Sequence record: PQ417132.1
DNA: 44,205 nt
DNA from: Escherichia phage vB_VIPECOTH07
Reading direction: 5' to 3' (one strand)
The notes below the pieces were generated by a model. It did no database searches and was not told the origin of the DNA. It worked only from the letters and a program-made list of their open reading frames with translations. This document shows, in pieces, positions 2,607-39,534 of this stretch; the stretch's first letter is position 1, and each line of letters starts with the position of its first letter. A program made the translations under genes and the position numbers.

Positions 2607-2803
2607 TAGTTATTCTCCAGTATTTCTAACGCTTTCACGAGGTAACGTTTACGTAAAACATCAGTCTGCGCGCTATTAGCCCTGCGTATGTAGCCCGCAG
2701 CAGCCCTCATCTGTAGTTTTTCCACCGAACCATTCCCTATAACTGATGCGATACATTTAACTTCGAGTTCTTCGGTTATTTCTATCGTCGATACGTTGCC
2801 CAT
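2606..2803 (-). CDS. hypothetical protein (first gene of operon)
   Basis: ATG at 2803 with SD GGAG; directly downstream of promoter at 2838..2866. Confidence 0.45.
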   Translation of the reverse strand: MGNVSTIEITEELEVKCIASVIGNGSVEKLQMRAAAGYIRRANSAQTDVLRKRYLVKALEILENN

Positions 2804-2837
2804 TTCTCTCTACTCCGTTCTCGTTGTCGATGAAGTA

Positions 2838-2866
2838 AATATAATAGGGTCGAGGATAATAGTCAA
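2838..2866 (-). promoter_or_regulatory. sigma70-like promoter TTGACT-N17-TATATT
   Basis: Minus-strand reading: -35 TTGACT (2866..2861), 17-nt spacer, -10 TATATT (2843..2838); about 35 nt upstream of ATG at 2803. Confidence 0.5.
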
Positions 2867-2888
2867 CTAGTCATTACAGAAAACAGAT

Positions 2889-2920
2889 AAAAAAAATCCC
2901 GGCTGGGTCAGGGCCGGGAT
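2889..2920 (-). terminator. rho-independent terminator
   Basis: Perfect 8-bp inverted repeat ATCCCGGC/GCCGGGAT with 9-nt loop; on minus strand followed by T8 run. Confidence 0.65.
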
Positions 2921-2991
2921 AAAACTGGAGAGCAGAGGGATGGAACAGGAGGTGATTTAAGTATCGTCTGATTAGTCTTAGGTGTCAATTG

Positions 2992-3022
2992 GTAAAATAA
3001 AACCCGGATTCGCGGTCCGGGT
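2992..3022 (-). terminator. rho-independent terminator
   Basis: Hairpin ACCCGGA-ttcgcgg-TCCGGGT followed on minus strand by TTTTATTTT; lies downstream of the endolysin gene. Confidence 0.55.
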
Positions 3023-3150
3023 TTCGGGCATAAGCCCCTGAACCCTACGCAGTCTCCACCGCCTGGGCTGCTGCTTCAGGTTTACCAGGGCTTAGTATGC
3101 AAGCACAAGCAGCGTGATGTAAGTTTACTAAACGCCTTCGTATTCGTCCA

Positions 3151-3636
3151 TCATTTAACAGCCCTCCCGATAGCCTCCGCCTCCTGCCACTGTTTACCGT
3201 CGAACAACGCCAGACGACCCGCAGTACGGCGACGCAGACCAAGTAACGGTTTACCATTCTGGTTGATGAACAGCGCCAGCTTAGTCCGCAGCGTCGTGAT
3301 ATCACCAGAACGCAGCGCCTTACCCGTGCCCGTAGTAGCAGCAATCACGCCAGCGCCCGCGTTATAGACCAGGTCGCAAACAGCATCAAACTGCGCCTGC
3401 GTCAGCGAATGGTGTGCAGCCGCGCCAACCGCAGCTACGGCTTTAGCCATATCACGGTTCAGTAACAGGAGGCCTTGCCCGGGGGTGATAGTCTGCCCCG
3501 CCTTAACATGCGGACCATAGCTTCCGTAGCCAATAGTCAGGTACTTCTCGTTCGGCGTAGCACGATACGCAGTTCCGCGGAATCCCTCAAATGCGGCGGT
3601 AAAATGCAATCCATTATCTGAAATGTTTCGAGACAC
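3151..3636 (-). CDS. endolysin, lysozyme (glycoside hydrolase family 24-like)
   Basis: FEGFRGTAYRATPNEKYLTIGYGSYGPH matches the phage lysozyme catalytic region. Start placed at GTG 3636 preceded by GGAGGA with 7-nt spacer (ORF track 3151..3687). No N-terminal hydrophobic segment. Confidence 0.8.
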   Translation of the reverse strand: MSRNISDNGLHFTAAFEGFRGTAYRATPNEKYLTIGYGSYGPHVKAGQTITPGQGLLLLNRDMAKAVAAVGAAAHHSLTQAQFDAVCDLVYNAGAGVIAATTGTGKALRSGDITTLRTKLALFINQNGKPLLGLRRRTAGRLALFDGKQWQEAEAIGRAVK

Positions 3637-3886
3637 GCTTATGTCCTCCGTATGACAGCCACGCCTGGCGAATCTGGCGCAGCGCAACTAATGTGATTAA
3701 TGTCTCTGGCAACGTGGGTGACATGCTGCCCTGTAACAGGTGGATACATCCAGCGGCGCAGACGATAGCAGTCAGGATATAAAGCACCCGACCAAATAAT
3801 CCGTCGTCCACACTGGGATGGTACACATTAAACAGCGATGTGCCTCCGATTGCCAGCATACCGCCGAACCAGAATAATTCATTCAT
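3614..3886 (-). CDS. small membrane protein in lysis cassette (second holin or antiholin candidate)
   Basis: ATG at 3886 within ATGAATGA overlap with holin stop; hydrophobic segments FWFGGMLAIGGTSLF and VLYILTAIVCAAGCIHLL. 3' end overlaps endolysin start by 23 nt. Confidence 0.5.
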   Translation of the reverse strand: MNELFWFGGMLAIGGTSLFNVYHPSVDDGLFGRVLYILTAIVCAAGCIHLLQGSMSPTLPETLITLVALRQIRQAWLSYGGHKRVSKHFR

Positions 3887-4187
3887 CTGGGCCTCCTCGA
3901 CGTGAGATGTATTCTCCGGCGACGATACCGGAGAGACGGGAATAAATAGGCATCCAGAGAATAGCAATAATGAAGCCCAACCCAGCGATTTCACGGTCGC
4001 CCGTGATACCGAACCATTGAGCTGCGAGAGGTGCGCCAAATACGGCGCAGGCGAAACCAGTAGCGATGAAGCAGAAGCCGTCGATAGGGCCAGAAATAGC
4101 GGACTTATGTTGTCGTAGTCCGATTACCCCTCCGGCTAGTGCGGCAGCGAGAAGCCACCCCGTCACTGTTTCAGTAAATTTATCCAA
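3879..4187 (-). CDS. holin (three predicted transmembrane segments)
   Basis: TTG start at 4187 preceded by GGAGGA 6 nt upstream; hydrophobic stretches TGWLLAAALAGGVIGL, FCFIATGFACAVFGAPLAAQWF, IAGLGFIIAILWMPIY; immediately upstream of endolysin. Confidence 0.65.
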   Translation of the reverse strand: MDKFTETVTGWLLAAALAGGVIGLRQHKSAISGPIDGFCFIATGFACAVFGAPLAAQWFGITGDREIAGLGFIIAILWMPIYSRLSGIVAGEYISRRGGPDE

Positions 4188-4262
4188 GATGAATCCTCCA
4201 GGTGCGTATTAAGTATGCAGTAACTGGAGGATACCACGGGTAGGAATTATCCTAATAACGGT

Positions 4263-4556
4263 TTATTTATGACGCCAGATGTATTGGCGCCTCTGCGGCT
4301 TCGTCGGAATATCATCGTACCCCAGCGATTTCCAGTAATTAAATAACCGATTAGCGATTGCTGCGCGTTCCTGTGTTTTAAACTCACCGAGGTTCACGGC
4401 CTTCCCGTTCTGGAATCCGCAGGCGCGGACCGCTTTGCGTCTGGCCTGAATCTCAGGGTACAGCGCATTACGGCGGCGCTTGTATATTCGTGTGTTTGCT
4501 CTCGGTGACAGCGGCGCAAGGCCGCTTCGTTTCAGGATGTCAGTTGCTAACGACAT
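4263..4556 (-). CDS. small protein with AP2-like segment (putative DNA-binding)
   Basis: ATG at 4556 overlaps upstream stop (ATGA). NGKAVNLGEFKTQERAAIANRLF resembles the AP2 DNA-binding fold; weak call. Confidence 0.35.
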   Translation of the reverse strand: MSLATDILKRSGLAPLSPRANTRIYKRRRNALYPEIQARRKAVRACGFQNGKAVNLGEFKTQERAAIANRLFNYWKSLGYDDIPTKPQRRQYIWRHK

Positions 4557-4819
4557 CACTCCACCCCCTCCACATGTGTAACTGACCCACAGTTCGCGCA
4601 CTCGACGTAATCAGGGAACTGGTCTTTGTATTTCTGTAACTCGGCTTCCGCTTTTTCTGCCCACGCTAAAAAGTCGAAAGCGGCATTGAGCATCTGCGTA
4701 CGCCATGTCCTGAGTTCATTGAACTTACGCTCAAGTTCCGCGTAGTCTTCGTAACCAACCCAGTCACCATCGTCGTGCGGCCCTATTAAACCGCCTTGTA
4801 ATAAATATCTCTGTACCAT
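4556..4819 (-). CDS. hypothetical protein (C-terminal CANCGS Cys pair)
   Basis: ORF track 4556..4825; ATG at 4819 with AGGAG 8 nt upstream. Confidence 0.45.
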   Translation of the reverse strand: MVQRYLLQGGLIGPHDDGDWVGYEDYAELERKFNELRTWRTQMLNAAFDFLAWAEKAEAELQKYKDQFPDYVECANCGSVTHVEGVE

Positions 4820-39038: not shown

Positions 39039-39302
39039 CTATTCCAGAATATTCCTCACGTAATCCTGCAACATGAACACTTTCAGCCTCAGTTGCCGTA
39101 CGCATTCGGCGTTCTGAACGTCGATAGCCAAATCCTCGTCAGCGTCTCTACTTGGCGGTGCCAGTTTGCACGGCGGCTGCATCATCGTCGTATCCGGGGA
39201 TGGAATTGGCGTTTGCGACGGCGCGGGACTTGAGCTGCACGCGCTCAGGGTCAAAAGTGCACACGCTGCGACCAGGCGTTTTAATGTACTTAACGACTTC
39301 AC
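39039..39302 (-). CDS. o-spanin (Rz1-like outer-membrane lipoprotein)
   Basis: Signal peptide with lipobox LLTLSAC, Pro-rich mature part; GTG start with SD GAGGTGA; begins inside the Rz frame (+1) and extends past its stop. Confidence 0.7.
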   Translation of the reverse strand: MKSLSTLKRLVAACALLTLSACSSSPAPSQTPIPSPDTTMMQPPCKLAPPSRDADEDLAIDVQNAECVRQLRLKVFMLQDYVRNILE

Positions 39303-39534
39303 GGGTAATCACCTCTGATTTCGTCTTGCCTTCGTTGTCAGCGGCTGCGGCCTTCGATTCGTCCTGCTGCTGCCGTTGTGTTTTCTTCGCCAACTCAGCC
39401 TGTGCTTTCTGCTGTTGCTGCGAAACGATATTCGCCCGGCCTTCGTTCCAGCCGCTGCGGTACTGGTAGATGCCGTGTGCGTAAGCCAGGATGACGAAAC
39501 ATGCTCCTGCTACGACAGTTGCTTTAAGATTCAT
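39148..39534 (-). CDS. i-spanin (Rz-like)
   Basis: N-terminal TM KATVVAGACFVILAYAHGIY followed by charged coiled-coil region QQQKAQAELAKKTQRQQQDE; ATG 39534 with AAGGAG upstream. Confidence 0.7.
   Translation of the reverse strand: MNLKATVVAGACFVILAYAHGIYQYRSGWNEGRANIVSQQQQKAQAELAKKTQRQQQDESKAAAADNEGKTKSEVITREVVKYIKTPGRSVCTFDPERVQLKSRAVANANSIPGYDDDAAAVQTGTAK

Follow-up and report, generated by a model that had tools for sequence, protein, structure and literature searches.

The lysis cassette of a Kagunavirus coliphage: conserved non-ATG starts, a two-gene holin-like module and a hairpin at the first Shine-Dalgarno site

INTRODUCTION

Phage SPP1 of a Gram-positive host has a two-holin lysis cassette in which gp24.1 and gp26, adjacent small transmembrane proteins, are encoded beside the endolysin gene. 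For F1-cluster mycobacteriophages, PMC13056207 describes LysF1a and LysF1b as adjacent small transmembrane proteins by the endolysin gene that jointly influence lysis timing. Closer to the locus considered here, a genome announcement (Schulenberg) lists a 'holin/antiholin pair and endolysin' apart from the spanins. In Jerseyvirus S10, expression of the homologue of the second membrane gene (H2 below) cut viable counts 100-fold while that of the first (H1) had no effect, both proteins being produced as 52-kDa trigger-factor fusions at 16 C. The endolysins are better characterised: EC340 of coliphage PBEC131 (PDB 8hp8) is active by zymogram, and Lys68 of Salmonella phage phi68 is enzymatically active and depends on Glu18, the equivalent of E17 in the enzyme described below. 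According to the Lys68 paper, Lys68 lacks an Asp between its Glu and Thr, belongs to a Glu-only subgroup and is >90% identical to the endolysin of Jerseyvirus Ent1.

Here we describe region 3151..4187 of a 44,205-nt stretch of phage DNA (the window). On the minus strand of this region H1, H2 and an endolysin gene are packed tightly, between an upstream hairpin and a downstream terminator. With a probability of about 0.8 we take them, including their gene starts and three-step logic, to be the holin/endolysin half of the three-step lysis system of a Kagunavirus (Guernseyvirinae) coliphage. A sequence-only reading of the window had already proposed a lysis cassette at this place, and the proposal is supported by the PF00959 domain of the endolysin, by conservation of the holin-like pair and by public records that annotate the same three genes.

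RESULTS

Organisation and distribution of the cassette

The features of the region are listed below from the upstream end; every coordinate of the earlier reading was correct, and all features lie on the minus strand.

4193..4232, minus strand: H1-leader hairpin, arms AUCCUCCAG (4232..4224) and CUGGAGGAU (4201..4193), loop of 22 nt
4194..4199, minus strand: Shine-Dalgarno (SD) site of H1, GGAGGA, 6-nt spacer to TTG, invariant in 44/44 loci
3879..4187, minus strand: H1, 102 aa, TTG start, membrane protein with three predicted helices; PHROG 2359 'holin' (label by annotation)
3892..3897, minus strand: SD site of H2, AGGAGG, 5-nt spacer to ATG
3614..3886, minus strand: H2, 90 aa, ATG start, membrane protein; PHROG 2508 'holin' (label by annotation)
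3644..3649, minus strand: SD site of the endolysin gene, GGAGGA, 7-nt spacer to GTG, inside the H2 coding sequence
3151..3636, minus strand: endolysin, 161 aa, GTG start, soluble GH24 muramidase of the Glu-only subgroup
2992..3025, minus strand: intrinsic terminator closing the cassette, 10-bp stem GAAACCCGGA / UCCGGGUUUU, then AUUUU

A search with the cassette matched 130 phage records, 111 of them over at least 80% of the query, and at a minimum of 80% identity H1 was found in about 117 records of the phage database and H2 in about 118. The two genes stand side by side, H1 before H2, in at least six lineages: Kagunavirus, Jerseyvirus, phages of the SenTO17 type, Dhillonvirus, Eiauvirus and an Ounavirinae-like Pectobacterium phage. 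CDS lengths in the records of K1ind2, Bas76 and XY1 are 309, 273 and 486 nt, with overlaps of 8 and 23 nt as in the window, and the Snoke and Ent1 records mark a terminator at the site equivalent to the one that closes the cassette. The cassette is thus real but ordinary: GenBank already has its genes, non-ATG starts and overlaps for over 100 Kagunavirus genomes. Labels do not agree among the public entries, class I and class II being exchanged from one record to another and many records giving just 'hypothetical protein'; it is the comparison that brings out this inconsistency of the 'class I/class II' labels for H1 and H2.

Start codons

Starts were compared in the window and 43 related loci (44 in total). 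The TTG, ATG and GTG starts proposed earlier are backed by these 43 loci, by homologues from other genera, by variants carrying an HNH insertion and by PDB 8hp8. GGAGGA occurs just twice on the minus strand of the window, and since both copies are cassette SD sites, those of H1 and the endolysin gene, this is more than chance.

TTG 4187 of H1, the proposed holin start with its GGAGGA, is kept in 44/44 loci. An in-frame stop lies 24 nt upstream in 43/44 of them and 147 nt upstream in the remaining one (L043), with no other start codon in between. Outside Kagunavirus the TTG aligns with ATG or GTG starts of homologues: GTG is used in Jerseyvirus, and ATG without a good SD in Dhillonvirus. An internal GTG (codon 8) was rejected as the H1 start for want of an SD. 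A dual-start motif of the lambda S107 or phage 21 S71 type is absent from H1, which begins MDKFTE close behind the upstream stop and has no second SD-backed start. Nor was a dual-start form of H2 found, its next Met being residue 10, inside helix 1.

Upstream starts for H2, such as TTG 4039, are not conserved and are cut off by intervening stops in relatives; 6/44 loci have no alternative upstream start. A second ATG inside the H1/H2 overlap, which would open a 36-aa ORF (3882..3772), is lost in relatives that carry ATGACTGA. For the endolysin, GTG 3636 with its SD, placed by the sequence-only reading 23 nt inside H2, is GTG in 40/40 insertion-free loci; the rival TTG 3687 has no SD, and 11/40 of these loci have no upstream in-frame start whatever. 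In the HNH-insertion variants the endolysin gene restarts at the equivalent of codon 2. An Arg-rich 99-aa ORF (3344..3045) overlapping the 3' end of the endolysin gene was considered as an embedded lysis gene and dismissed as a chance ORF, since in relatives the stretch free of stops is anywhere between 4 and 123 codons long. The comparative proof of the three start codons is of modest practical value, being useful for cloning.

Gene overlaps

H1 and H2 share the 8 nt ATGAATGA (3886..3879), which hold the H2 ATG and whose last three bases are the H1 stop. This overlap of stop and start, noted before, is kept in 44/44 loci. H2 and the endolysin gene overlap by 23 nt. It had been suggested that such coupling fixes the ratio of holin, partner and endolysin, a claim for which we find no support: each gene has its own strong SD, the overlaps are generic and an HNH gene is tolerated within the cassette. 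Bas76 has overlaps of 4-23 nt at about 13 of the 22 same-strand junctions in its homologous 6 kb, so that such overlaps are commonplace here. Across genera the H1/H2 junction varies from the 8-nt overlap to a 2-nt gap, and the H2/endolysin overlap measures 23, 20 or 14 nt, and 8 nt in one locus (L039). In DUEC01 and BUCT825, which are isolated, plaque-forming phages, an HNH endonuclease gene lies between H2 and the endolysin gene. We infer that the overlaps favour co-expression and probably do not set a ratio.

The endolysin and the spanins

The endolysin matches PF00959 with 89.6 bits (cut-off 22.3). PDB 8hp8 is ~92% identical to it (E = 2.7e-95) and also begins VSRNIS, and the match to the Jerseyvirus Ent1 endolysin has E = 3.9e-84. 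Its catalytic Glu is E17 in an FEG motif, aligned with the Glu of PDB lysozymes. A T4-type Glu-Asp-Thr triad, for which an Asp nine residues past the catalytic Glu was sought, is absent, as the 'YDD' of PDB 9kbs and 9kbq aligns with 'YRA' in the endolysin. The hydropathy profile of all 161 aa contains no N-terminal hydrophobic or signal-anchor segment. A soluble enzyme of this kind needs a large-hole holin and not a pinholin.

Spanin genes were not found downstream of the endolysin gene; they lie at 39534..39039, about 9 kb from the cassette around the circular map, in the head-gene module, the same position as in Bas76:

39148..39534, minus strand: i-spanin (Rz-like), 128 aa, N-terminal transmembrane domain; PHROG 2536, E = 6e-57
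39039..39302, minus strand: o-spanin (Rz1-like lipoprotein), 87 aa, GTG start, lipobox LSAC; PHROG 1267 and PHROG 5672

The o-spanin gene begins inside the i-spanin gene and extends past its end (overlapped architecture). With a transmembrane i-spanin, a lipobox Cys in the o-spanin and overlapping genes, the pair has the features of a two-component spanin.

The two membrane proteins

H1 has three clearly hydrophobic helices, which AF2 places at residues 4-26, 34-59 and 64-89 with low confidence (pLDDT 63). Its loop 1 is basic and its N-terminus and loop 2 are acidic, a charge pattern that suggests an N-out/C-in topology. Annotators disagree in their topology predictions, and the orientation in the Snoke record is the reverse of this one. 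In H2 two helices are clearly hydrophobic and a third is amphipathic, and the C-terminal tail is strongly basic (+4/-0 charges); AF2 helices are at 2-22, 29-51 and 58-79, again at low confidence (pLDDT 61). The tail carries +4 to +8 charges in 6/7 homologues, and a good SD precedes H2 in every lineage compared. The second ORF of the earlier reading is therefore a real, conserved membrane protein, and specialist annotators call the pair 'holin/antiholin'.

Both proteins resemble holins in size and context: H1 has its three helices, H2 has two or three and a charged tail, and both are encoded beside the endolysin gene. Pfam searches with H1, H2 and six homologues of each returned no holin family and, at E = 1 or better, just scattered chance matches. 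Among 1.84 billion proteins, an exhaustive search with H2 turned up just 20 representative clusters, and word-index protein searches returned close relatives only. H1 and H2 were also compared as possible paralogues, which an hhalign probability of 2.5% speaks against.

A hairpin at the H1 start

The 5' arm of the H1-leader hairpin, AUCCUCCAG, is a mimic of the anti-SD, and the 3' arm, CUGGAGGAU, contains the H1 SD. Folding of the leader (98-nt region) gave an MFE of -24.5 kcal/mol (z = -2.6). The mean probability of being unpaired in the SD zone was 0.15 for H1 versus 0.53 for H2 and 0.62 for the endolysin gene, and the H1 zone was the least accessible of the three in 4/4 siphovirus lineages tested. 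Among the 44 loci the arms vary at 1/9 and 0/9 columns, the sole change giving a G-U pair, while the loop varies at 8/22; for comparison, 22/30 third codon positions of H1 are variable in the same loci. The anti-SD arm is no less conserved than the H1 SD. With arms that are essentially unvarying in Kagunavirus, covariation within the genus cannot be shown. Jerseyvirus, Dhillonvirus and two other lineages have hairpins of like structure and different sequence in front of H1. In all five lineages, Kagunavirus included, the SD-like G-run of H1 forms the 3' arm and a CCUCC-like anti-SD the 5' arm. An Rfam scan of 2700-4700 gave two matches alone, both far under their gathering scores. A sigma-70 promoter scan of the conserved block upstream of H1 found none; a GATAAT hexamer resembling a -10 element is visible by eye. 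No public record notes an SD-sequestering hairpin.

From the TTG start and the pairing of the SD with the upstream anti-SD arm we infer that H1 translation is probably kept low on purpose.

DISCUSSION

Roles of H1, H2 and the hairpin

As first described, the cassette matters little, and its endolysin family already has a crystal structure and published biochemistry. Of the sequence-only interpretation, the cassette, the starts and the second membrane ORF stand, while a ratio fixed by overlap and H1 as 'the holin' are not supported. What could explain lysis timing in these therapeutic-candidate phages is the two-gene holin-like module together with the SD-occluding hairpin. In the route that we propose, H1 and H2, small inner-membrane proteins with three predicted helices each, would act as a joint two-protein holin module that builds up in the membrane and then abruptly opens holes big enough for the folded cytoplasmic endolysin. 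The enzyme would pass these holes to reach the cell wall, and the spanins would afterwards fuse or disrupt the outer membrane. H2 and the endolysin would be translated from accessible strong SDs, with possible termination-reinitiation by ribosomes across the overlaps.

Within such a module we lean, at a little less than even odds, to H2 as the main hole-former and H1 as a low-abundance partner or antiholin, because of the basic C-terminal tail of H2, its good SD in every lineage and the S10 toxicity result. The opposite assignment, H1 as 'the holin' and H2 as 'the partner', was arbitrary, and the weak evidence at hand points the other way. We consider it rather unlikely that H1 is the holin and H2 either an antiholin or a further, dispensable holin, with the ATGAATGA overlap coupling the amount of H2 to that of H1. 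H1 is the first gene of the cassette, its three clearly hydrophobic helices and charge pattern fit a class I holin with N-out/C-in topology, its weak start fits the normally low expression of holins, and specialist annotators, who label both proteins 'holin/antiholin', leave either option open. However, the strongly basic tail typical of holins is on H2 and not on H1; the toxic protein in S10 is the H2 homologue (weak evidence, as it was a trigger-factor fusion); antiholins are usually scarcer than the holin, yet H2 has the better translation signals; and with an SD of its own the level of H2 is not tied to that of H1. Somewhat less unlikely is an obligate heteromeric (two-component) holin in which neither protein forms holes alone. 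H1 and H2 are strictly conserved together, side by side and in unchanged order, across lineages diverged to 19-48% identity, the pair is kept even in a 92-kb myovirus-type genome without an adjacent endolysin gene, no natural loss of H1 or H2 was seen in the phage database records, and their non-paralogy (hhalign 2.5%) implies that the two probably have distinct roles. On the other hand, the S10 report suggests that the H2 homologue is toxic alone, and holin/antiholin pairs encoded by separate genes are likewise co-conserved within lineages, so that this pattern does not tell the models apart. It is improbable that one of the two is not lytic at all and rides in the cassette with a role in superinfection exclusion or another membrane function. 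Position and shape are indeed the only grounds for the putative lysis function, no Pfam family matches, and in Wc4-1 the pair has no endolysin gene beside it, but five lineages keep the site directly upstream of, and overlapping, an endolysin or spanin gene, and size, helix count and charged tails of H1 and H2 fit holins. Most improbable of all is a pinholin/SAR-endolysin system in which H2 would merely depolarise the membrane and the endolysin be exported by Sec. Helix 1 of H2 (LFWFGGMLAIGGTSLFNVY) is glycine-rich and weakly hydrophobic (Kyte-Doolittle '+' at 3-5 only), loosely recalling the releasable first transmembrane domain of the phage 21 pinholin; however, the endolysin has no signal anchor, with its N-terminus fixed at GTG 3636 by relatives and PDB 8hp8, and a pinholin is unable to release a soluble cytoplasmic enzyme. 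The SAR-endolysin part is already refuted by the sequence.

The hairpin might instead be merely the intrinsic terminator of the preceding transcription unit, with no role in H1 translation, a reading that we regard as possible but the less probable one. The equivalent hairpin of Jerseyvirus and Dhillonvirus leads into a run of at least 6 T, and the Ent1 record labels it a rho-independent terminator, whereas the hairpins of Kagunavirus, the SenTO17 type and the L062 type have no proper U-tract. Moreover, the 3' arm being SD-like, any mRNA with the H1 start must carry the SD-occluding stem, and a terminator role and a translational role are not mutually exclusive. Returning to H1 and H2 as a joint module, a bolder and on balance unlikely version is that they are an obligate two-protein holin without a Pfam model, mobile as a fixed module between unrelated phage types, and gated by a terminator/anti-SD hairpin that is conserved in structure and not in sequence in at least five lineages; the hairpin would keep the first subunit scarce and thereby set the lysis clock.

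Comparison with known systems

The SPP1 and LysF1a/LysF1b pairs belong to phages of other hosts, are not homologous to H1/H2 and have other numbers of transmembrane domains, and the function of the H1/H2 pair is putative. The 'antiholin' of phage CSP1 was considered as a relative and judged probably unrelated, since the paper on it deals with lysis-suppression genes beside a tail-fibre gene. P1 LydA/LydB, P2 Y/LysA and T4 T/RI resemble the present pair in having two distinct membrane-associated proteins in or near the cassette, one of them a presumed modulator, but show no detectable homology to it; H1 and H2 are both ~90-100 aa with three helices, always adjacent and translationally juxtaposed, and interaction between them, or inhibition of one by the other, is putative.

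Likeness to lambda S-R-Rz/Rz1 lies in the small three-helix membrane protein(s), the soluble muralytic enzyme, the i-/o-spanin pair and a cassette upstream of packaging and head genes on the same strand. The H1-leader hairpin also recalls the 'sdi' stem-loop over the holin translation start region of lambda. In contrast to lambda, H1 and H2 do not resemble S in sequence (neither matches a Pfam holin), a pair of separate genes stands where lambda has the S105/S107 dual start, the enzyme is a GH24 hydrolase instead of a transglycosylase, and the spanin genes are unlinked and overlapped where those of lambda are embedded.

The endolysin has the length, N-terminus and catalytic Glu of Lys68 and EC340, also without an Asp between the Glu and the conserved Thr, and differs from them by ordinary sequence variation only. 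Closest of all are the annotated cassettes of Kagunavirus and other Guernseyvirinae (K1ind2 ORF38-40, Snoke gp071-073, XY1 gp43-41 and Bas76_0071-0073), which share with the window the genes, their order, the TTG and GTG starts, the separate spanins and the whole architecture, at a nucleotide identity of 86-92%.

Cassette layout and start codons

The phage is a Kagunavirus (Guernseyvirinae), one of the K1G-like siphophages infecting E. coli. Its lysis genes, together with the hairpin that closes the unit, are arranged as follows (SD, Shine-Dalgarno site):

4187..3879, minus strand: H1, membrane protein of 102 aa; TTG start, SD GGAGGA, 6-nt spacer
3886..3614, minus strand: H2, membrane protein of 90 aa; ATG start, SD AGGAGG, 5-nt spacer
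3636..3151, minus strand: endolysin (lysin), 161 aa; GTG start, SD GGAGGA, 7-nt spacer
3025..2992, minus strand: closing hairpin, 10-bp stem and U-run

The H2 ATG lies within ATGAATGA, the final three bases of which are the H1 stop, and the lysin GTG is located 23 nt ahead of the H2 stop. On the minus strand GGAGGA has two copies in the whole 44,205 nt, and these are the SDs of H1 and the lysin. Two sigma-70-like promoters are seen just past the cassette terminator (TTGACA-17-GATACT at 2960-2988 and TTGACT-17-TATATT at 2838-2866, minus strand); since they stand directly 3' of it, the lysis genes appear to be a separate transcription unit with hairpins at both ends.

This three-gene cassette is already known and annotated in public genomes. 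Its 1.35-kb region matches 130 phage records with a top identity of ∼91%, and K1ind2, Bas76 and XY1 carry annotated CDSs of 309, 273 and 486 nt with identical overlaps, so at the annotation level the finding is already public. The fBC-Eco01 paper, on a Kagunavirus, agrees with the published cassette annotation.

Start codons were compared between the window and 43 related loci (3 from GenBank records, 40 from IMG/VR contigs). The H1 TTG is kept in all 44, has an in-frame stop 24 nt upstream in 43 of them and 147 nt upstream in the remaining one (L043) with no intervening start, and lines up with the ATG/GTG initiators of homologues from other genera (MDKLNEW, MDDKHFW and similar). The 8-nt H1/H2 overlap is equally constant (44/44, as ATGAATGA or ATGACTGA), while in-frame H2 starts further upstream are unconserved and in six loci do not exist at all. 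The lysin GTG is kept in 40/40 loci with the overlap arrangement, and endolysin mtEC340M (PDB 8hp8, 161 aa, ∼92% identical to the window lysin) has the N-terminus VSRNIS. An upstream lysin start at TTG 3687 was rejected: it has no SD, and 11 loci have zero in-frame starts upstream.

The lysin start is best supported by a natural experiment: four metagenomic loci have an HNH homing-endonuclease gene, or its remnant, inserted ∼10 codons into the lysin gene; isolate DUEC01 carries the same insertion, and BUCT825 has an annotated endonuclease between holin and lysozyme. The insertions and remnants in the related loci are:

L033:2751-3266, HNH insertion
L042:2751-3284, HNH insertion
L048:1751-2266, HNH insertion
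L017:2751-2867, HNH remnant, 38 aa
L025:2751-2912, HNH remnant, 53 aa

The HNH frame captures the former lysin SD, GTG and first 10 codons ('VSRNISDNGL'), and the lysin is rebuilt 3' of it from an ATG of its own, its N-terminus being duplicated (MRNISNNG or MRSMSDNG); an in-frame stop stands 18–21 nt upstream of the position aligned with the GTG. The truncated remnants indicate that the insertion is decaying.

The sequence-only reading had proposed exactly these starts, TTG for H1, ATG within the overlap for H2 and GTG 3636 for the lysin, and the 44-locus comparison, the SDs and 8hp8 bear it out. Its interpretation is largely right too; its claim that the overlaps fix the ratio of the three proteins, however, goes beyond what they show. 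A strong SD is present separately for each gene, and in the homologous 6 kb of Bas76 overlaps of 4–23 nt are found at ∼13 of the 22 junctions between same-strand genes. Across genera H1 and H2 overlap by up to 8 nt or stand up to 2 nt apart, and the H2/lysin overlap measures 23, 20 or 14 nt (8 nt in locus L039); viable phages tolerate an entire HNH gene between H2 and lysin. Compared in this way, the overlap is probably not mechanistically special; coupling through termination-reinitiation is possible.

A hairpin over the H1 Shine-Dalgarno site

Upstream of H1, AUCCUCCAG (4232..4224) pairs with CUGGAGGAU (4201..4193) on the minus strand in a perfect 9-bp stem, whose 3' arm holds the H1 SD and whose 5' arm is anti-SD-like. 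Folding of the 98-nt hairpin region gives an MFE of –24.5 kcal/mol (z = –2.6). By computed folding the H1 SD is sequestered, with a probability of being unpaired of 0.15; the values for the H2 and lysin SDs are 0.53 and 0.62. Variation among the 44 loci touches 1/9 columns of the non-coding anti-SD arm, where the change gives a G-U pair, and 0/9 of the SD arm, compared with 8/22 in the hairpin loop and 22/30 at H1 third codon positions.

The ∼75-nt intergenic block (4188-4262) is well conserved in the 44 loci, also in those with another upstream gene. That gene varies among Kagunavirus: in the window (4263-4601, minus strand) it matches PHROG 9632, of unassigned function, and was compared with L045:1004-1441 of phage Snoke; in Snoke and others it encodes an HslV-like protease, with the same leader block conserved. 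The block opens with the palindrome AGGATAATTCCT (4253..4242), which holds a GATAAT –10-like hexamer. A sigma-70 scan of the conserved block upstream of H1 identified no promoter.

Other lineages have unlike stems built to one plan: the 5' arm resembles CCUCC, and the 3' arm, which adjoins the H1 start, resembles an SD.

Stems upstream of H1 in other lineages (5' arm / 3' arm)
Jerseyvirus: AAUCUCCGAA / UUCGGAGAUU, then U6; annotated terminator in the Ent1 record
Dhillonvirus: GUCCCAGU / ACUGGGAC, then U6
SenTO17 type: CUCCGUAAU / AUUACGGAG
Further lineage (loci L062-L064): CCCCUG / CAGGGG

The hairpin could also serve to terminate transcription. H1 initiators are weak: Kagunavirus uses TTG, Jerseyvirus GTG, and Dhillonvirus an ATG that lacks a good SD. 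From these and the sequestered SD we infer that H1 would be held scarcer than H2.

The H1-H2 pair and the identity of the holin

In the sequences searched, H1 and H2 are a fixed pair. At a threshold of at least 80% identity H1 occurs in ∼117 records of the phage database and H2 in ∼118, and homologous adjacent pairs in the same order are found in Jerseyvirus (Ent1 gp50/gp51), the SenTO17 type and Dhillonvirus (EP23 p52/p53). In the Eiauvirus Edwardsiella phage eiAU-183 (L049:1181-2263) the pair is followed not by a lysin but by an Rz-like gene, annotated 'lysis accessory protein', whose product has a transmembrane domain and a predicted coiled coil, and Pectobacterium phage Wc4-1 (L050:1417-2003; 92 kb, Ounavirinae-like) has the pair without an adjoining endolysin gene. 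An exhaustive search of 1.84 billion proteins with H2 returned no more than 20 representative clusters, which makes this a narrow family.

H1 and H2 match PHROG 2359 and PHROG 2508, respectively, and no others, both being 'holin' through annotation. No Pfam family matched either, even via six homologues of each, and paralogy was undetectable by comparison of the two. AF2 gives three helices in each at low confidence. Proteins of the H1 family have a basic loop 1, an acidic N-terminus and an acidic loop 2, which fits an N-out/C-in topology; the TMHMM topology note of Snoke contradicts the positive-inside expectation. The H2 family has a strongly basic C-terminal tail (+4 to +8 in 6/7 homologues). 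The third helix of Kagunavirus H2 is amphipathic (R70, R73), which explains why annotators count either two or three transmembrane domains and why class labels are swapped: among the records L003 (XY1), L045 (Snoke) and L001 (K1ind2), XY1 has H1 as 'class II' and H2 as 'class I', the labels are the other way round in Snoke, and numerous records give 'hypothetical protein' alone.

We lean towards H2 as the hole-former, with a probability of roughly 0.45: its tail is basic, a good SD precedes it in every lineage, its gene is next to that of the lysin, and its homologue in phage S10 gave a toxicity result, though a weak one. An obligate heteromeric holin of H1 and H2, with which their fixed pairing would sit well, seems somewhat less likely to us, and the roles given by the sequence-only reading, H1 as the holin and H2 as an antiholin or second holin, are slightly less likely still. 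Only the H1-H2 module and the hairpin upstream of it might merit a small experiment.

Spanins, endolysin and the lysis pathway

The spanin pair (Rz/Rz1-type) lies within the head-morphogenesis gene module, distant from the holin and endolysin genes:

39534..39148, minus strand: i-spanin, N-terminal transmembrane domain, PHROG 2536
39302..39039, minus strand: o-spanin, 87 aa, GTG start at 39302, lipobox LSAC, overlapping the i-spanin

The o-spanin annotation of Bas76 is a 47-aa C-terminal fragment without signal sequence or lipobox, and the length of PHROG 5672 is likewise 47 aa.

The lysin matches PF00959, and its sequence has no hydrophobic N-terminal segment, which argues for a soluble cytoplasmic enzyme dependent on a large-hole holin. 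A two-protein inner-membrane holin module would free this soluble, Glu-only GH24 muramidase, and the unlinked spanins would then finish lysis; cassette and spanins are most likely a canonical three-step lysis system. Two close relatives of the lysin are active, EC340 by zymogram and Lys68, which requires Glu18, can do without Thr35 and has no Asp between these two residues. Compared with the Glu-Asp-Thr triad of the T4 type, the window lysin too is missing the Asp (residues 17–34; 'YRA' aligns to 'YDD' of other GH24 structures), the same as published for its homologue Lys68 of the Glu-only subgroup.
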